Origin: Candidatus Moraniibacteriota bacterium
GTDB taxonomy: Bacteria > Patescibacteriota > Minisyncoccia > Moranbacterales > UBA1568
Direction of reading: 5' to 3'
Length of the DNA: 64,000 nt
NCBI GenBank assembly: GCA_052034935.1
Contig: JBPOIB010000006.1
Location: 537 to 64,536 of the forward strand
Part shown: in pieces, positions 3,409 through 38,230 of the stretch
Numbering within the stretch: the stretch's first letter is position 1
How the letters are laid out: each line of letters starts with the position of its first letter
Position numbers and translations under genes: made by a program
The notes under the pieces: model-generated
Told to the model about the DNA's origin: nothing
The model's input: the letters and a program-made list of their open reading frames with translations, nothing else
Databases searched by the model: none

Positions 3409-4536
3409 CTAGACTGTTTTCTTGCTGCCCTGCTCGGCCAGATGAGTCGCAACGAGCACCTCTACTGCGCTCTGTATCTTAGCCCGAAAAAGCGCCTTGT
3501 CAAACCGTTCGGCATGCTGGCGGATGAGTCCGCTATCGTACGTCTTGCTCTGGAATTTCCGGACCGCTTCCGACAAAGATTCTGGTGTCTGCTCATCGAA
3601 GAATTCCCCCATCTTCCCCTCTTCAAGGTGCTCCACGATATCACCGCCCCGATACGCGATAACTGGTCGCCCCGAAGCGAAGGCCTCTTCGGCGACGATG
3701 CCAAAATCCTCTTCCTGCGGAAAGATGAACGCTTGGCATTTGGCATAGTATTTGGGGAGTGCCTCGTCCGGGACACGGCCGAGAAACTCGATTGTCGGTC
3801 CGGCGATTTTTTTCAAGCGATCGAATTCCGGACCGCGGCCGATAATCTTGAGCGGCAGTTTCAGCCGATTGAAGGCCTCAATCGCGATGTCGTGGCGCTT
3901 GTAGGCGATGAGACGGCCAACCATGAGAAAATAATCCTGGCACTCACTTTCCGGAGCGACCGAAAACGAGGCAATGTCGACCGGTGGATGGATGACAACG
4001 GAGTCCTTGCGATAGTACTTGGCAATCCGTGCCTGAACGAATTTCGAGTTGGCGATGTAGTGGTCGACCCGATCAGCAGACGCTTTGTCCCAAAGCCGAA
4101 TCGGGTTCATGAAGAACGGCACAAGCTTCTTTATGAAGCGCGGAAAGCCGAAATCTTGCGTGTATTTCTGACAGTCATCCCAGGCATAACGCATCGGTGT
4201 ATGAACATAAGAAATATGAAGCGTCTCCGGTCGCGTGATAATCCCCTTCGCATAGCTGGAAGAATCCGAGAGAACGACATCGTATTTCGAGAAATCAAAG
4301 CTCTCAATCGCGGCCGGCATGAGCGGAGGAAACAACCGGTGATGCTTCCTTGCGAAACGCGACTTCTGAAGAAACGACGTGTATATCCGCTTGTCAGCGA
4401 ACTTGCCGTGCATCGCTTCCGGATCATGGAGGAGCGTATAAATCGGTGCGTACGGCCAGATCTCGGTAAACGCTTCGAGCACGCGCTCGGCGCCGCCGTA
4501 CTGCACCAGATAGTCATGGACGAGAGCGATTTTCAT
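3409..4536 (-). CDS. Glycosyltransferase family 1 (GT4-type).
   Basis: MKIALVHDYLVQYGGAERV N-terminus. EDFGIVAEEAFASGRPVIAY motif. Confidence 0.8.
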   Translation of the reverse strand: MKIALVHDYLVQYGGAERVLEAFTEIWPYAPIYTLLHDPEAMHGKFADKRIYTSFLQKSRFARKHHRLFPPLMPAAIESFDFSKYDVVLSDSSSYAKGIITRPETLHISYVHTPMRYAWDDCQKYTQDFGFPRFIKKLVPFFMNPIRLWDKASADRVDHYIANSKFVQARIAKYYRKDSVVIHPPVDIASFSVAPESECQDYFLMVGRLIAYKRHDIAIEAFNRLKLPLKIIGRGPEFDRLKKIAGPTIEFLGRVPDEALPKYYAKCQAFIFPQEEDFGIVAEEAFASGRPVIAYRGGDIVEHLEEGKMGEFFDEQTPESLSEAVRKFQSKTYDSGLIRQHAERFDKALFRAKIQSAVEVLVATHLAEQGSKKTV

Positions 4537-4539
4537 AGC

Positions 4540-4884
4540 TTAGCCGGTGATATGCTCATACTGTCCATACTTCCAGGCTGGCGCACAGCTGATAAAAAGC
4601 GACATATTTCCTTCCCAATAAAATTTTTCACCTGGTTCGATCAAGACTACGTCTCCGGGCTCGAGCGACGTTTCCTCCTCTTCTGTGACAAGCTTACCGG
4701 AACCGCTTACGATATATGCCGTCTCGGCCGAGACACGGTTCAAGACCCAGCCCTCGTCCGGATAGCGGCCACTGATTTTTGCAATCGCCGCATCAACCCG
4801 CTCATCTTCCAAACGATATTCCGACATGAGGCAGGTCTCGCCATGCTGAAACTTTTCCGCTTCTATCGATGCAATTTTTTTCAT
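4540..4884 (-). CDS. Cupin-domain protein (small cupin_2-like barrel).
   Basis: 114 aa with a GDVVLIEPGEKFYWEG motif typical of cupins. Adjacent to sugar-modifying genes. Confidence 0.55.
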   Translation of the reverse strand: MKKIASIEAEKFQHGETCLMSEYRLEDERVDAAIAKISGRYPDEGWVLNRVSAETAYIVSGSGKLVTEEEETSLEPGDVVLIEPGEKFYWEGNMSLFISCAPAWKYGQYEHITG

Positions 4885-5518: not shown

Positions 5519-6467
5519 ATGCCGTAGCGAGTTCCCAAACTTTGCGAAGGTCCCGATAAAGCAAATCCCAGACGGTGACCGAACAGACTCCGATGAGGGC
5601 GGATTCATCTTCTTTTGAAAGGGCCAAGTTTTCTACGTTCTGCTCTCCCATCATCGGGTACATGATCGATTCCGGATTGTCGACGTGGCCAAGACCGAGC
5701 GCATGTCCCAACTCATGAGTGAGCACCATGCGCAGATGGTTCCGATCATCAAATTGGTAGATATCGATTCCTTCGCCGTTGTAGATGCCCTGATCGAAAG
5801 CCTCCCCAGTCCCGTAGACTTCGGTGAATTCATCGAGCTCAGCATTGTAACGGTCGATGATCTTTTCCTCTTCCTTCGCGTATCGATTGACGTCGGCAAC
5901 GAGTCCGTTCACCTTCTGACGCTTTGCCTCGAGCATGTTCTGATCGCGCTCGAGCGCCCGCTCCTCATCGCGAAGCCACTCAATTTCGTCTTCGTCCGTT
6001 CGGTCGCTCTCGTTCCATTTGATGACGCGGATATTGTAGCGCTTCAGCCTCGCTTCAAAAGCTGCAAGTGATGAATCATAGTCCTGCCGCGCCGACTTGA
6101 GCTCGGCTGCCAGTCGATTGTATTTTTCCTTGATACTCTCCTGCTTCGACTGAACGGTCGTAAGCTCCTGTTCCAGCTTCTGACTCTCAATGGTCCGTGC
6201 TTGACGTTCGTCGAAAATGAGATTGACTGGGAAAGCCGCCGTCTCATCGTAACGAAAGAGATCACGACGAACCGATATTTCCCATGGTTCTTCGGCTTCG
6301 GCGAGCGCCGCCTGAAAATCAGCTTTCGAGATACCAAAGCGTTCGTCGAATTGGCCGATGGTATACGCCAAGGCAATCCGGCACGGTACGCGTGACGATT
6401 CAAACGCATAGAGTCCGCCAAAAGCCGCGATGATGATGAGAATCCAGAGAGAAATCCGCTTGGTCAT
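5517..6467 (-). CDS. Matrixin-like (M10 family) zinc metalloprotease. Has an N-terminal TM anchor and a long coiled-coil region.
   Basis: HELGHALGLGH (HExxHxxGxxH) zinc-binding motif followed by a Met-turn-like IMYP. N-terminal hydrophobic helix. Confidence 0.65.
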   Translation of the reverse strand: MTKRISLWILIIIAAFGGLYAFESSRVPCRIALAYTIGQFDERFGISKADFQAALAEAEEPWEISVRRDLFRYDETAAFPVNLIFDERQARTIESQKLEQELTTVQSKQESIKEKYNRLAAELKSARQDYDSSLAAFEARLKRYNIRVIKWNESDRTDEDEIEWLRDEERALERDQNMLEAKRQKVNGLVADVNRYAKEEEKIIDRYNAELDEFTEVYGTGEAFDQGIYNGEGIDIYQFDDRNHLRMVLTHELGHALGLGHVDNPESIMYPMMGEQNVENLALSKEDESALIGVCSVTVWDLLYRDLRKVWELATA

Positions 6468-6496
6468 AGGTTTCCACTATCATAGCATTCTGGCTC

Positions 6497-6525
6497 TCTC
6501 AAGCCTTTGACAGCACAGTTTCACA
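6497..6525 (+). promoter_or_regulatory. Sigma-70-like promoter for the P1-P5 operon.
   Basis: TTGACA, a 17-nt spacer, then TAGTAT. GGAG precedes the P1 ATG at 6591. Confidence 0.5.
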
Positions 6526-6590
6526 TTGCTAGTATCCGCTCGAAGAATGACCTCTTCCCCTTCTTTAAAAACCCCTACCGGAGCTATCCT

Positions 6591-6893
6591 ATGCGTATCC
6601 GTATCATCGGTCCCGCCCTGGCTGATCCGGCCCAAAGGATCAGGTCCGAGCGACTTCTCGACTTTGTCGGTTGCACCCTCGAAGCGGATGGCCAGGCAGT
6701 CACTGCACTCCGCAGACTGCATCCGACGCTTCCGAATCACCCCCGGACCTACGGCGTCGCGATCGCCGATGTGCTGGAAGCGCTCGCTTTGAAACCGAGC
6801 ATTCACCCCGAAGCGATTCCTGCCTGGGGTGGACTCATCGAGAGTTGCCTCGTTTACTTCCCAGCCGACTCAGTCGAATCCCTCACTGATTGA
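6591..6893 (+). CDS. Hypothetical small protein, family member P1.
   Basis: Starts MRIRIIGP. The C-terminus IPAWGGLIESC is related to the P5 C-terminus IPVECGELIES. High GC. Confidence 0.55.
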   Translation: MRIRIIGPALADPAQRIRSERLLDFVGCTLEADGQAVTALRRLHPTLPNHPRTYGVAIADVLEALALKPSIHPEAIPAWGGLIESCLVYFPADSVESLTD

Positions 6894-34575: not shown

Positions 34576-36153
34576 ATGCTTCGACCGCTTGTCCTCATCG
34601 TCCTCGACGGCTGGGGAATCGCCAATACGACCCAGGGCAACCCGATCCGCGAGGCGAAATTGCCGACCTTCGACAAATTCAACCGATTCTACCCAATGAC
34701 CACGCTTCAGGCTTCCGGCATTTCGGTCGGTTTGCCGTGGAATACGGCTGGCAATTCTGAAGTCGGACATATGACCATGGGTGCCGGGCGCATCATCTAC
34801 CAGAACATGCCACGTATCGCCCTTTCTATCCAGGACGGGACTTTCAATACCAACCCCGCCTTCCTCGAGGCGATCGATACCGTCAAAAAGAAAGACTCGA
34901 CCCTTCATCTCATGGGACTCATCAGTCCCGGATCGGTCCACTCCCACAAGGACCACCTCCTGGCATTGCTCCGGCTCGCCAAAGAGCAGGGTTTGAAAAA
35001 AGTAGTTGTCCATGCCTTTATGGATGGGCGGGACTCTCCGCCGACATCCGGTATCGGACACCTCCGCGAACTGACGCGCGAAATACGCCTCGCCGGCATC
35101 GGCGAAATCGGCAGCCTCATCGGCCGCAACTTCGCTATGGATCGCAACAACAACTGGGACCGGGTCGAGAAAGCCTACAATATGCTCACGAAAGGCATCG
35201 GCGAGCGAACCGATGATCCGTTGCTTCATCTCGAACAGTCCTATGCCAAAAACATTACCGATGAGTATATTGAGCCCACTGTCATTGAGAAGAACGGTCA
35301 GCCGATCGGTCTCGTTCAAGACGGCGATGCAGTCATCTTCTTCAACTTCCGTGAGGACCGGGCACGCGAGATTACCAAAGCATTCGTCGTGCCGGACTTC
35401 GACGGCTTCGTCCGGGAAAAGAAGCTCGATATCTACTTCGTGACGATGACCGAATATGAAAAGGGTCTCCCGGTTCACATCGCGTTCCCACCAGAAGAAG
35501 TCACTGACAGTCTCGGCGAAGTCCTCTCAAAAGCCGGGATGCGGCAGCTCCGGATCGCTGAAACAGAGAAATACGCCCACGTTACCTACTTCTTCAACGG
35601 CGGCAACGAAGAGGCCTTCCCGAATGAAGATCGCATCCTCATCCCCTCGCCAAACGTTGCCCATTTCGACGAACAGCCGGAGATGAGCGCACCCGAAGTG
35701 ACCGACACCGTCATCAAGAAGATTCAGGAGAATATCTATGACTTCATCCTCGTGAATTACGCGAACCCGGATATGGTGGGTCACACCGGCAATGAAGAGG
35801 CGTCCATCCAAGCAGTCCAAGCGACCGACAAAAGCCTCTCACGCCTGGTTCCAGCCATTCTCGGAGCTGGCGGCGGTGTACTCATTACTTCGGACCACGG
35901 CAACGTCGAAGAAGTCCTCAATCTCCAGACGGGCGAACGCGATACCGAACACTCGACGAATCCGATTCCGCTCTGGTATATCACGCCGACCAATCACCGC
36001 GAGAAAGCTTCTGAAGAAATGGTGCGCGAGCAGAATGAAGTCCATGGACTCCTTTCCGATGTTGCCCCGACGATTCTCGCTGTCTTTGGGTTGCCCCAGC
36101 CAGAAGCAATGAACGGTTCATCTCTTCTCCCGCTCCTTGACCCGAAAAAGTGA
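34576..36153 (+). CDS. gpmI: 2,3-bisphosphoglycerate-independent phosphoglycerate mutase.
   Basis: LDGWGI N-terminus. SHKDH and DGRD motifs. Length 525 aa. Confidence 0.9.
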   Translation: MLRPLVLIVLDGWGIANTTQGNPIREAKLPTFDKFNRFYPMTTLQASGISVGLPWNTAGNSEVGHMTMGAGRIIYQNMPRIALSIQDGTFNTNPAFLEAIDTVKKKDSTLHLMGLISPGSVHSHKDHLLALLRLAKEQGLKKVVVHAFMDGRDSPPTSGIGHLRELTREIRLAGIGEIGSLIGRNFAMDRNNNWDRVEKAYNMLTKGIGERTDDPLLHLEQSYAKNITDEYIEPTVIEKNGQPIGLVQDGDAVIFFNFREDRAREITKAFVVPDFDGFVREKKLDIYFVTMTEYEKGLPVHIAFPPEEVTDSLGEVLSKAGMRQLRIAETEKYAHVTYFFNGGNEEAFPNEDRILIPSPNVAHFDEQPEMSAPEVTDTVIKKIQENIYDFILVNYANPDMVGHTGNEEASIQAVQATDKSLSRLVPAILGAGGGVLITSDHGNVEEVLNLQTGERDTEHSTNPIPLWYITPTNHREKASEEMVREQNEVHGLLSDVAPTILAVFGLPQPEAMNGSSLLPLLDPKK

Positions 36154-36351
36154 CTTGACCCCGTTAGCAATGAAAGGTTTCTGGGAATTAAAAAGCATCA
36201 CCTCCTTATCCTGTTTTGTGGCTTGATTTAAAGAAAAAAGTGTTAAAATATATTTCTCACGGGGTTTGACGAATCGTCCGTTTCAGGCTACAAAAGGAAG
36301 GCTTCACGCTCGTTCCGCCAGCCGGCGGATCAGTGGATAGAAATATAGTAT

Positions 36352-36424
36352 GCGCTCGTAGCTCAGTGGATAGAGTACCTGGCTTCGAACCAGAGGGTCG
36401 GGGGTTCGATTCCCTCCGAGCGCA
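36352..36424 (+). tRNA. tRNA-Arg (anticodon TCG).
   Basis: Acceptor GCGCTCG, anticodon stem-loop CCTGG-CTTCGAA-CCAGA, T-arm GGGGGTTCGATTCCCTC. CCA not encoded. Confidence 0.8.
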
Positions 36425-36604
36425 CAAGTGAATGAAATGAACGCGGGTGTTCGGAGCAAGCCGGCTGCCTGGCTTGCGAAGGGATGAGAAAGGCGGAACG
36501 CTGTTTCGCAAGCATGCGAAACCGTGAGCTGGGGGCGCAGAAATTCATGAGCGACGGCGAGTGAATTATCCGTGGCCGATTCCCTCCGAGCGCACAAGTG
36601 ATAC
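36425..36604 (+). repeat. tRNA-linked conserved ~150-nt element. It ends with a direct duplicate of the last ~24 nt of tRNA-Arg(TCG) (GATTCCCTCCGAGCGCACAAGTGA).
   Basis: The same 24-mer appears twice, at 36405..36428 and 36581..36604. The spacer is homologous to the one downstream of tRNA-Arg(GCG). It contains a GCAAGCC...GGCTTGC hairpin and a TTTCGCAagcaTGCGAAA palindrome. Confidence 0.5.
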
Positions 36605-36616
36605 AACCAAAAGACT

Positions 36617-36706
36617 GGAGGAGTGGCCGAGCGGTTGAAGGCAACAGTCTTGAAAACTGTCGTACCAGAAATGGTATCGTGAGTTCGAATCTCACCTCCT
36701 CCGCCA
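36617..36706 (+). tRNA. tRNA-Ser (anticodon TGA), with long variable arm and encoded CCA.
   Basis: Acceptor GGAGGAG, anticodon loop CTTGAAA, T-arm GTGAGTTCGAATCTCAC, then CTCCTCC-G-CCA. Confidence 0.85.
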
Positions 36707-36810
36707 ATCATAAAAAGAGCTGCCCTTGCGCGGTTCTTTTTTATTTAATCCGACTTGAGCACTCAGAAATAATCCAAAGTTTATGGTATAGTGAGAAAAA
36801 AGGAATCTCT

Positions 36811-37293
36811 ATGCAATCACGACCTGTCTCTGGCACCCCGCTCATCGTCTGGCGCGCGCCAGAACATATCCATCTGCGACCCAACCCGCGCGGCCTGATG
36901 ATCGCTACTATCGCGCTCGCCCTCATCATTGCGTACGCTGTCTTCACCAACAGCCCGCTCATGGCGATTACCTTCATCCTTTTTGGAGTAGTCGGCTACC
37001 TCTTCGTCACCCGCGATCCGCGCGAATTTGAGTTTGCCATCACTGACAAAGGCATCGTCGGTGGCAAGACACTCTATGCCTTTGAAGATCTGAACTCCTT
37101 CTTCATCTACGAAGAGCCACCGCTCGAAGGAGTCCTCAGCATTCACTCAAATGGTATGCTCGCCCCCTATATCCACATCCCGATTGCCGGAATCGACGAC
37201 CAGGAGATTCGGGAAATCCTTCAGAACTTCCTCCCTGAGGAAAAGCACGAACCAACCATCATTGACACCCTCGAGAAAATGCTGCATATTTGA
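36811..37293 (+). CDS. Hypothetical membrane protein (2 TM), 160 aa.
   Basis: Start moved to MQSRPV, downstream of the tRNA-Ser gene. Hydrophobic helices IATIALALIIAYAVF and MAITFILFGVVGYLFV. Confidence 0.5.
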   Translation: MQSRPVSGTPLIVWRAPEHIHLRPNPRGLMIATIALALIIAYAVFTNSPLMAITFILFGVVGYLFVTRDPREFEFAITDKGIVGGKTLYAFEDLNSFFIYEEPPLEGVLSIHSNGMLAPYIHIPIAGIDDQEIREILQNFLPEEKHEPTIIDTLEKMLHI

Positions 37294-37357
37294 TTGGTCC
37301 TGAAGCCGTTCCCAGTAAGCATTTTGATGCTGTGATAAGCCTCAGTGGCCATTTTTT

Positions 37358-37430
37358 GCGCTCGTAGCTCAGTGGATAGAGCATCTGGTTGCGGTCCAGA
37401 GGGTCGCAGGTTCGATTCCTGCCGAGCGCA
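37358..37430 (+). tRNA. tRNA-Arg (anticodon GCG, unusual for bacteria).
   Basis: Acceptor GCGCTCG, anticodon stem-loop TCTGG-TTGCGGT-CCAGA, T-arm GCAGGTTCGATTCCTGC. CCA not encoded. Confidence 0.75.
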
Positions 37431-37585
37431 CATCGGAGCAAGCCAACTGTTTGGCTTGCGTCAGGAGTCGAAAGGCGGAGTGATGCACGAGTTTGCGAAG
37501 CAAGGCGAGTGCCACGAGCCGGGGTCGAGAGAAATTTCCGTCAGGGAATTTACTCGTGACCGATTCCTGCCGAGCGCACACGTGC
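37431..37585 (+). repeat. Second copy of the tRNA-linked element. It ends with a duplicate of the 3' end of tRNA-Arg(GCG) (GATTCCTGCCGAGCGCACA).
   Basis: The 19-mer appears at 37411..37429 and 37562..37580. The spacer shares blocks with 36425..36580 (TCGGAGCAAGCC, GGCTTGCG, GAAAGGCGGA, AGAAATT). Confidence 0.5.
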
Positions 37586-37597
37586 GATTGTCGAACT

Positions 37598-37669
37598 GTC
37601 CTCGTCGTATAATGGATAAGACATCGCCCTCCGAAGGCGGAAATGCAGGTTCGATTCCTGCCGAGGACA
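37598..37669 (+). tRNA. tRNA-Arg (anticodon CCG).
   Basis: Acceptor GTCCTCG, anticodon loop CTCCGAA, T-arm GCAGGTTCGATTCCTGC. Confidence 0.8.
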
Positions 37670-37846
37670 CAACCATGCAGACCTCAGGTCTGCTATACCA
37701 AGAAAATCTTCCTAAAAAATGAATGAAACGTCCCTTGACTGAGGCGTTTTTTTCGTATATAGTGATGCCGCACGTCACCCGATGACGGAGCTGGCTCTTT
37801 ACAAAAAGAATACTTTTACCAACCCTCCGATAGAAGGAGACCGACA

Positions 37847-38230
37847 ATGACTTCCCTTCCCGCTGTGCGCCATGTTGCGCTCAAGCCGTGCCGGGGAGAA
37901 GAAAACCCGGCGCTCCACTTCCATTACGAGGAACCGCTCGAAGAACATCATCGCGGGACAATCCTGGTCGCGCTCGGCACTTTCGTGCTCCAGGGAAAGG
38001 GCGCTGCCTTCGAGCCAATTTTCGGAGAAGACCAGGTCCTCTTTCGGCCGACCAGGGCTGGAAAGAGCCACCGCCTAGACCATGGGCCGTATGTCGACCT
38101 TTCCCGACACTTGGGCCACGAACCGCCAAACGGCGAAATCCAGTTCCTCAGCGAAGAAGAATGCCCCCTGGCTGAGACAGCCCCTGAACCAATCCGCCAC
38201 GTTGGCAGAGAAAGAAGCATGGTCCACTGA
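37847..38230 (+). CDS. Hypothetical protein (127 aa), high GC.
   Basis: GAAGGAGACC lies upstream of the ATG. No recognisable domain. Confidence 0.45.
   Translation: MTSLPAVRHVALKPCRGEENPALHFHYEEPLEEHHRGTILVALGTFVLQGKGAAFEPIFGEDQVLFRPTRAGKSHRLDHGPYVDLSRHLGHEPPNGEIQFLSEEECPLAETAPEPIRHVGRERSMVH

Follow-up and report, generated by a model that had tools for sequence, protein, structure and literature searches.

Two of the 12 tRNAs in the window, that is, in the whole 64,000-nucleotide (64-kb) stretch of DNA analyzed here, are each followed by a compact element ending in a repeat of the tRNA 3′ end. At the site described first, the host tRNA-Arg(GCG) occupies positions 37358–37431 of the forward strand, on which all features given below also lie (ARAGORN prediction; Rfam tRNA match of 71 bits). 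The 3′ part of this tRNA, CGATTCCTGCCGAGCGCACA (37413–37432), here called copy A, runs from T-loop residue C56 to two bases past the discriminator. It is followed by a 5′ arm, the distal part of which, the P1 5′ strand UCGG (37433–37436), was delineated using RNAfold and comparison with the other window copy and Arg(GCG) relatives; its RNAfold partner is the CCGA of either tRNA 3′-end copy. The proximal part of the arm, the P3 5′ strand CAGGAGUC (37462–37469), was also predicted by RNAfold, belongs to a helix that covaries across the family (helix 1), and complements GAUUCCUG, which corresponds to tRNA positions 57–64. Between the two parts, RNAfold predicts a hairpin, P2, of the form GCAAGCCAA-CUGU-UUGGCUUGC (37438–37459), for which compensatory changes could be read from the sequences of five other loci (L002, L003, L010, L024, and L030).

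The conserved core (37470–37561) is a three-way junction, as determined from a pattern match, a covariance model (R1), and covariation statistics, and consists in order of GAAAG-N-CGGAG, hairpin Pb, GAG-N′-CGGGG, and hairpin P4/P5 (GGUCGAG...CUCGUGACC); the R1 match over this copy extends from 37458 to 37573 and scores 82 bits. The 3′ arm, or copy B (37561–37580), is an exact 20-nt repeat of the tRNA: an earlier, sequence-only reading had placed the repeated tRNA-Arg(GCG) 3′ end, GATTCCTGCCGAGCGCACA, at 37562–37580, and the C preceding it belongs to the repeat as well. Pairing of copy B with the 5′ arm closes the core in the RNAfold prediction. The spacer between tRNA-Arg(GCG) and copy B is 130 nt long, and tRNA-Arg(CCG) (37598–37670; ARAGORN and Rfam) begins 17 nt past the end of the repeat at 37580, as had been described. 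The segment 37432–37580 belongs to a large family of structured elements, each only ~110–220 nt in length, that are located directly 3′ of tRNA and tmRNA genes, on the tRNA strand, in the candidate phyla radiation (CPR/Patescibacteria).

The same architecture, noted previously at another tRNA-Arg, was found ~1 kb upstream, where the complete site from tRNA-Arg(TCG) through copy B spans 36352–36601 (+). Here, the tRNA itself (36352–36425, ARAGORN) is followed by a leader and 5′ arm (36426–36487), a core (36488–36577), and a 25-nt copy B (36577–36601) that exactly repeats 36407–36431; a tRNA-Ser starts 15 nt further on, at 36617. Model R1, which was built from copies in other genomes and then run over the window, matches this copy at 36476–36589 with 92 bits, and the third-best match in the 64-kb window reaches only 14 bits. 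Since the two scores (92 and 82 bits) so far exceed the next best, the two window spacers are homologous far beyond chance, and the block homology suspected by eye was borne out by pairwise alignment as well. Each repeat fits its own host tRNA (CCCTCC versus CCTGCC), again as first observed. The GCAAGCC/GGCTTGC stem had been described as preserved in a compensatory fashion; it is indeed preserved, but because its sequence is identical in both copies there is no compensation within the window, and real compensation in this stem was seen only elsewhere (GAAAACC/GGTTTTT in L002 and GTGAGCC/GGCTCAC in L003). A leader of ~24 nt, from the tRNA end to TCGGAG, is present in the tRNA-Arg(TCG) copy and its relatives and missing from the Arg(GCG) copy, the 5′ arm of which is therefore shortened. 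In both window copies, the distance between the repeats (130–150 nt) is too short for an ORF. A small membrane-protein gene lies between the two tRNA clusters of the window; its homologues are assigned to Candidatus Moranbacteria/Moraniibacteriota, which belong to CPR/Patescibacteria.

Scans for sigma-70 consensus promoters and for terminators identified promoter-like sites at 36227–36254 and 37262–37290 and a terminator at 36712–36741. Because the same scans detected no promoter-like or terminator-like site inside either element, and because the next tRNA begins only 15–17 nt downstream, both elements appear to be transcribed within tRNA operons, from which the processing cuts of the flanking tRNAs would release them. 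In many other genomes, a terminator-like hairpin is located between the tRNA and the 5′ arm, arguing against strong co-transcription there. When folded alone, the two window elements adopt the closed-core form (z = −3.1 and −4.6). When each is folded together with its tRNA, the minimum free energy (MFE) structure resembles a "giant tRNA," in which copy B is the partner of the tRNA 5′ strands and copy A that of the 5′ arm, so that the element is accommodated in the T loop. The window copies can thus take alternative folds in these predictions; as copies in other genomes often have a degenerate distal copy B, conservation of the giant-tRNA fold does not extend across the family.

Distribution of the family and structure of its core

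To survey other genomes, a search pattern (GAAANNCGGA...GGGGTCGAG...CGTGACC) was composed from blocks common to five spacers, without any tRNA sequence, and run against prokaryotic genomes, one for each species. Matches were obtained in at least 118 genome stretches, of which ~115 are real, nearly all of them from CPR MAGs. Three of the 118 (L056, L093, and L105, from Proteobacteria and Actinobacteria) are probably chance matches and were excluded: L056 is coding-like sequence devoid of arms, and L093 and L105 have no tRNA or tRNA-like 3′ arm adjacent to the match. Among the matches listed, lineages with the element include Saccharibacteria and many Parcubacteria/Paceibacteria, Moranbacteria being one of them. 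At least one MAG labeled "Bdellovibrionales" (CAYLPD01) belongs to CPR, as it comes from the same assembly as the Moranbacteria relative L005, and the remaining MAGs with this label are probably mislabeled CPR genomes too. One of the matches listed bears the label "Elusimicrobiales."

An nhmmer census placed 114 of 147 matches no more than 220 nt downstream of a tRNA or tmRNA gene and on the same strand; the other 33 are mostly second tandem units or lie behind tRNAs left uncalled by ARAGORN. Every one of the 20 amino acids is represented among the host tRNAs, and the element is present at each of the eight tmRNA genes detected in the sampled loci. The search for copies behind other tRNAs, which the sequence-only reading had recommended, was productive (at least 115 found), and its proposal that the element is specific for tRNA-Arg is not supported, given the copies behind all 20 amino-acid tRNA types and tmRNA. 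Model R1 detected ~40 further copies within the same 8-kb loci, and the presence of several copies per genome is therefore normal. Approximately half of the tRNA and tmRNA genes in the sampled loci bear the element, a proportion biased upward by the choice of loci for its presence. Some copies have no tRNA within 8 kb.

Read along the tRNA strand, a typical copy comprises copy A, in many cases a terminator-like hairpin and T run, the 5′ arm, the core, and copy B, after which a second terminator-like hairpin is often located. The core opens with GAAAG, followed by a short helix, Pa (G-N-C with G-N′-C), and an internal loop, GGA/GA. Hairpin Pb, mostly capped by an AGYA tetraloop, is followed by two G residues and by the long hairpin P4/P5, whose conserved base (GGUCGAG.../...CGUGACC) contains a G-U pair, an A·G mismatch, and a bulged A. 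P4/P5 ends exactly at the junction of core and arms, its bulged A is nearly invariant, and the three-way junction is closed by the arm helix P3/P1. Hairpin P2 is optional; where present, it has a conserved CUGY tetraloop and interrupts the 5′ arm at the site corresponding to the boundary between T stem and acceptor stem. In tRNA-like structures (tmRNA TLD, YrlA, and viral TLS), an acceptor-like helix is stacked on a T arm with a T loop. The arm helix of the family reproduces the 3′ strand of the acceptor and T stems, with the core taking the place of the T loop and positions 57–60 being base-paired. Hammerhead, k-turn/box C/D, and T-arm junction readings of the core, all made by eye, were rejected, as their motifs hold in subsets of copies only; likewise, a kissing interaction between the P2 and Pb loops was unsupported in the Arg(GCG) subclass.

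Covariation, the test of which had also been suggested from the window alone, proved to be strong across 66 diverse copies. Standard pairs fill 85.7% of cells compared to 67.1% in shuffled alignments, and pair changes on both sides were counted in 617 cells versus 214 when shuffled, with none of 500 shuffles reaching 617; columns fixed by the search pattern carry no information in this respect. As a control, sliding the partners by 1–3 columns reduced pairing to 37–47%. The Pa N-N′ pair alone occurs as GC (27), AU (22), CG (10), and UA (3). The strand signal is modest, with G-U (100 cells) exceeding A-C (67 cells) such that the tRNA sense is favored. The covariation together with this G-U preference indicates that the structure is formed by a single-stranded nucleic acid of the tRNA strand, and RNA rather than single-stranded DNA (ssDNA) is the simplest reading of the acting form. 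The G-U pair and A·G mismatch of P4/P5 reside in pattern-fixed columns and would fit either RNA or ssDNA.

Arms matched to the host tRNA and turnover of copies

In contrast to the constant core, the arms follow the neighboring tRNA. The 5′ arm complements the last 10–22 nt of the upstream tRNA gene, beginning at T-loop position 57 and running through the acceptor 3′ strand, usually on into the trailer and terminator hairpin. In the 3′ arm, the tRNA sequence starting at T-loop position 56/57 recurs over at least its first 5–8 nt. As the reverse complement of the 3′ arm, the 5′ arm complements the genuine tRNA 3′ end too, so it can pair either with that end, forming one long hairpin, or with the repeat, closing the core. 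Copy A, terminator, and 5′ arm together form a continuous hairpin of up to ~40 bp (e.g., in L115, L060, and L085). Since the complementarity follows the genomic trailer (e.g., CACA-AATTT), with no TGG opposite the non-encoded CCA, the arm was not copied from mature tRNA. Its derivation by reverse transcription of mature tRNA was thus rejected, as was the possibility that it represents a copy of the tRNA 5′ half: the arm complements positions 57–60 and has A-U where the tRNA has G-U.

The tie between arm and host was evident from predicted duplex energies, which average −22.7 kcal/mol for the 5′ arm with its own tRNA end and −13.8 kcal/mol with the ends of tRNAs for other amino acids. When the partner of the arm is limited to its distal 12 nt, the corresponding means are −13.2 kcal/mol for the own tRNA, −8.2 for copy B, and −8.8 for non-cognate tRNAs. 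Of 89 elements, 60 have a copy B that deviates from the tRNA end; the tRNA is the better partner of the arm in 47 of these 60, and copy B is in three, a comparison biased by the fact that all analyzed copies were selected for an intact core. Long exact repeats such as those in the window are found in about one-third of copies, repeats of at least 14 nt occur in ~57 family copies, and the acceptor part of copy B is degenerate in approximately half. What is best kept in intact-core copies is a full-length, tRNA-matched arm along with the 5–8 nt of the 3′ strand that close the core. A functional constraint requiring pairing with the host tRNA, one of two explanations offered initially, is therefore the better-fitting one, given the difference between cognate and non-cognate energies and the retention of complementarity between arm and tRNA even where the downstream repeat has decayed.

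The other explanation, a simple target-site duplication at each insertion, is contradicted by two observations. In L102, the 5′ arm fits copy B (CTTCC) and not the adjacent tRNA-Leu (CTTGGG), and the Arg(GCG) elements of three genomes have in common an insertion of 3–4 nt within copy B. Both observations indicate that the repeat travels with the element, and copy B, judged from these sequences, would not be a fresh target-site duplication. In a variant subfamily, the arms match the last tRNA bases and the trailer instead of the T loop, and at least two other core types obey the same arm logic, sometimes within the same arrays.

Orthologous sites differ among close relatives. The Arg(GCG) site is occupied in the window, L003, and L134; in L136 and L137, it harbors a different core type that resembles the tRNA-Arg(TCG) copy of the window; in L002 and L008, it is empty, with spacers of 25 and 17 nt, respectively; and in L004 and L007, the spacers are unrelated to the element. 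The membrane protein encoded nearby in L136 and L137 is 89% identical to that of the window. Within a genome, cores behind different tRNAs are 87–98% identical, with the identity ceasing at the core borders, and tandem, truncated, and pseudo-tRNA-fused copies were also encountered. The patchy sites, differing cores at one site in close relatives, near-identical cores, tandem, truncated, or pseudo-tRNA-fused copies, and the use of every tRNA type plus tmRNA are all signs pointing to a family that has spread and still turns over, and gene conversion between cores could be an alternative source of near-identical cores with different arms. Overall, what had been read from the window stands as far as a recurrent tRNA-linked element, the homology of its copies, and arms tied to the host are concerned; specificity for tRNA-Arg and a simple target-site duplication are not supported.

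Relation to known classes and competing interpretations

Searches against known families returned tRNAs and tmRNAs only, both for Rfam matches with E values up to 10 over 36100–37900 and for Rfam 15 matches at gathering score in 18 related loci. An all-against-all BLAST comparison of 1445 ORFs from ~115 loci of 8 kb revealed no neighbor protein family in more than 12 loci; the most common neighbor families are housekeeping or local genes, and the flanks consist of tRNAs, terminators, and unrelated housekeeping genes. No match to the strict core pattern was obtained in viral contigs, where a relaxed pattern matched six loci, five of them by chance and the sixth (L128) on a contig bearing housekeeping genes, and blastn searches of INPHARED phages and PLSDB plasmids gave no match. 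No description of such an element was found in the literature sources searched, outside of which one may exist. On the features tested, the family is apparently undescribed and fits no known class of RNA or mobile element.

Partial resemblances are nevertheless instructive. MITEs have conserved terminal inverted repeats and a short target-site duplication of fixed length; the family departs from this pattern, in that its inverted arms vary with the neighboring tRNA and the interior alone is conserved, so assignment to this class was rejected. Like IS200/IS605 elements, PATEs, and REP/RAYT systems, the family is small and ORF-less, and it may share with them a strand-specific function and a flank or cleavage site that is read by pairing with an internal guide. 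Its conserved imperfect hairpin with a bulged base at the junction is reminiscent of the ends of single-strand (HUH) transposons. It differs in the length of that guide (10–22 nt, compared to 4 nt in IS200/IS605), in pairing 3′ of the junction, and in having a long direct repeat, and no TnpA, TnpB, or RAYT gene is located near the elements in the 8-kb loci. IS110 bridge RNAs, TnpB omega RNAs, and group II EBS/IBS pairings likewise combine a constant scaffold with variable target-matching segments, and the 3′ arm beside the scaffold is identical to the target sequence that flanks it, a trait also of omega RNA; unlike bridge and omega RNAs, the family has no adjacent recombinase or nuclease gene and no Rfam match, and its arms pair with each other. 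The primer-binding sites of LTR elements, with ~18 nt complementary to a tRNA 3′ end up to about T-loop position 57/58, are comparable to the 5′ arm. Here, however, the complementarity follows the trailer and not CCA, there is no reverse transcriptase, and the partner gene lies upstream in cis; the missing CCA complement led to rejection of a retroelement primer-binding site. The 5′ ribozyme of R2 retrotransposons and its SINE-like derivatives (SIDEs) are co-transcribed with a host structural RNA gene, as the window copies appear to be, and likewise incorporate host sequence into their own helix and include short non-autonomous copies occupying the same target, but these elements belong to eukaryotes, with 28S rRNA as their target, an HDV-like fold, and unrelated enzymology.

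An even balance of probability attaches to the interpretation preferred here, namely that the family is a non-autonomous selfish element homing to tRNA and tmRNA 3′ ends and read on the tRNA-sense strand. The 5′ arm would act as the guide to the tRNA end, the core as a conserved scaffold that is itself a ribozyme or is bound by a trans-acting factor, and the working form would be RNA or ssDNA of the tRNA-sense strand. It is from their distribution, and from that only, that the elements appear to be mobile; no transposase, integrase, or reverse transcriptase is linked to them, and no excised or circular forms were seen. The main rival reading, possible if somewhat doubtful, is that the family is instead a tRNA-linked structured RNA that serves the host, in which the arm captures the tRNA 3′ end or pairs with the repeat in read-through transcripts, and which may function as a conformational switch or acceptor/T-arm mimic controlling termination, 3′ processing, or quality control, or may titrate a tRNA-binding enzyme. 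Such a role would account for a core kept with compensatory changes across Saccharibacteria, Paceibacteria/Parcubacteria, and Moranbacteria, for arm-tRNA complementarity that is kept while the distal copy B decays, and for the two competing folds obtained when whole precursors are folded. The extension of the complementarity into the genomic trailer and terminator, which places the partner of the arm in cis, is in line with a host function as well, as are the terminator-like hairpins after copy A and after copy B and the abundance of the element (the upward-biased half of tRNA genes in the sampled loci). It is less easily reconciled with presence that varies at orthologous tRNAs of close relatives and extends to only two of 12 tRNAs in the window, with different core types at one site in close relatives, with tandem arrays, truncated copies, and pseudo-tRNA fusions, or with copies that have no tRNA within 8 kb.

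The remaining explanations carry far less weight. That the integrase-mediated integration of prophages or islands left scars, with the repeats as attL/attR cores and the spacer as attP arms, is highly improbable and already largely refuted. Integrase islands are well known for direct repeats of the tRNA 3′ end that begin in the T loop and for targeting tmRNA, and it is these features, along with tandem arrays that look like repeated integration, that recommend the idea: tyrosine-integrase islands and prophages of the T-loop sublocation class also target tRNA and tmRNA 3′ ends, regenerate and repeat the end, and form tandem arrays. The elements are, however, uniformly small (0.1–0.2 kb and not kilobases) and have no integrase gene inside or adjacent. 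An integrase acting nearby is at odds with the lack of any recombinase or recurrent protein accompanying the elements in ~115 loci of 8 kb. The core is missing from phage, viral, and plasmid collections, its RNA-type covariation would be unexpected for protein-binding att arms, and att sites contain nothing equivalent to the 5′ arm, which adds an inverted copy of the tRNA end. Local tandem duplication of tRNA-Arg followed by decay, leaving only a pseudo-tRNA, might be suspected from the position of the window copies 1 kb apart at two related tRNA-Arg genes; it retains virtually no probability, being refuted by the distribution of a core that over 100 genomes share and that is found with more than 20 kinds of host tRNA, and the 5′ arm is the complement of a tRNA 3′ end and not a copy of a tRNA 5′ half. 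Unlikely, too, is an intron-like insertion that separates T-loop positions 56 and 57, or a self-cleaving or self-ligating ribozyme, with copy B as a second 3′ exon; the element beginning with copy A would then be the intervening sequence, and copy A itself would render splicing unnecessary. The repeat does begin at T-loop position 56/57 in both window copies and most family members, the MFE fold does pair the 5′ strands of the acceptor and T stems with copy B and leave the element in the T loop, and self-splicing introns are abundant in the tRNAs of Patescibacteria (PMC13011429). Yet no case without copy A was found, the fused copy in L069 being a pseudogene beside an intact tRNA-Lys; about half of the copies have a copy B with a degenerate acceptor part, and the arms of the variant subfamily are shifted to the tRNA end and trailer. 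The nearest published description concerns group I introns at position 35/36 of Patescibacteria tRNAs (PMC13011429). Group I introns interrupt the tRNA (in the anticodon loop in bacteria) and have a P1–P9 core. The family leaves its tRNAs intact (68–71 bits), its spacers match no Rfam intron or ribozyme, and its core is far below group I intron size; group I introns were accordingly rejected.

Significance of the element family

Taken further, the homing interpretation would define a new class of programmable mobile element free of protein genes, with a core of ~90 nt and a guide of 10–22 nt, representing RNA- or ssDNA-guided homing native to CPR; this extension is tentative and rather improbable. 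Such an element would insert at a tRNA or tmRNA 3′ end while supplying or re-creating that end, and its core would be a ribozyme or a handle for a host enzyme. Templated copying across the hairpin of tRNA, terminator, and arm is one possible way in which the guide might be re-specified for new tRNAs.

CPR/Patescibacteria genomes are very small and contain little intergenic DNA, yet an element of 0.1–0.2 kb is common in the sampled loci. The element accounts for many of the "duplicated tRNA 3′ ends," pseudo-tRNAs, and odd tRNA spacers in CPR assemblies. If mobile, it would be a homing element without a protein gene of its own, with its target written in base-pairing arms, and might provide a programmable scaffold; if it serves the host, it would reveal a form of tRNA mimicry or of control over tRNA transcripts that had so far escaped notice in a major bacterial radiation. 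In either case, the RNA family is abundant and strongly supported by covariation, and Rfam does not contain it.

Core types between tRNA-matched arms

Elements of the tRNA-linked family, in which a 5′ arm complementary to the 3′ part of the host tRNA (copy A) is followed by a structured core and a 3′ arm repeating that tRNA part (copy B), were found to carry more than one type of core. A variant subfamily retains the same type-1 core, the conserved three-way junction, with its start changed from GAAAG-N-CGGAG to AGGCGCAG; it is represented in five loci from other genomes: L072 (1332-1474, minus strand), L123 (762-891), L112 (4824-4963, minus strand), L060 (7544-7674), and L075 (3432-3561, minus strand). 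In the two copies examined, L072 and L123, the arms (GCTTTTGTG/CACAAAAGC-like) correspond not to the T loop but to the final bases of the tRNA together with its trailer, and the 5′ arm extends the terminator hairpin.

A second core type, laid out as GAAAAGGTT, a hairpin, AACCTGTAC, and another hairpin, is present in L066 (1946-2095), L020 (approximately 4400-4600), and L107 (minus strand, near 3679 in reverse-complement coordinates). Its flanking arms are matched to the tRNA, as are those of type-1 elements, and it at times stands in tandem, downstream of a type-1 element. A third core type, GAACCGAAGGCCCACC..., lies in L123 (615-715), between the 5′ arm and the copy B that go with a tRNA there.

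Tandem and fused copies

In tandem arrangements, copy B is followed by another 5′ arm and then by a second core, either full or truncated. Such arrangements occur in L061 (4013-4070), where the second core ends after 18 nt, downstream of the first units in L059 and L065, and downstream of the element in L010 (minus strand). In L069 (about 6190-6700, minus strand), the 5′ part of a tRNA-Lys(TTT) terminates within the T loop (…GGTTCGAATCC) and is joined directly to an element's proximal 5′ arm and core. Downstream stands a tRNA-Lys(TTT) that is intact and has a variant element of its own. The fusion appears to be a pseudo-tRNA, produced by a deletion inside an element.

Labels of carrier genomes

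Five element-carrying MAGs (L124, L050, L063, L084, and L086) are labeled "uncultured Bdellovibrionales." L124 derives from the same assembly (CAYLPD01) as the Moranbacteria-like locus L005; its label is therefore wrong, and the other four probably are as well.

Pseudogenes, hairpins, and palindromes around tRNA-Arg genes

A conserved hairpin, TCCGCCAGCYGGCGGA, has flanks (GGAAGCGTGG...) resembling the 5′ half of a tRNA-Ser. In the window (36300-36351) it precedes tRNA-Arg(TCG), and it recurs in L004 (1545-1612), L007 (1858-1935), and L008 (2146-2223); in element-less relatives, it is located between tRNA-Arg(TCG) and tRNA-Ser.

The GTCCTCG-type tRNA-Arg(CCG) is intact in the window (37598-37670), whereas in L003 (3338-3425) and L134 (1766-1850) it is a pseudogene whose T loop holds a palindrome and whose acceptor 3′ strand is gone; both loci have a second, GCGCTCG-type tRNA-Arg(CCG) downstream.

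GC-rich palindromes of ~20 nt (CCTGCCTRCCGGCAGGCAGG and variants) were mapped in L003 (3393-3412), L134 (1684-1702, 1821-1840, and 1995-2014), and L007 (1955-1974). In tRNA-Arg(CCG) copies or fragments, the palindrome sits precisely at the T-loop 56/57 boundary. Palindromes of this type are also inserted in the L134 element, within its P5 loop, and in L007, where a pseudo-tRNA-Ser has one in its D-loop region; the 3′ arm of an L003 element carries a related hairpin. The palindrome looks like a separate miniature insertion for which the T-loop 56/57 site is likewise a target.
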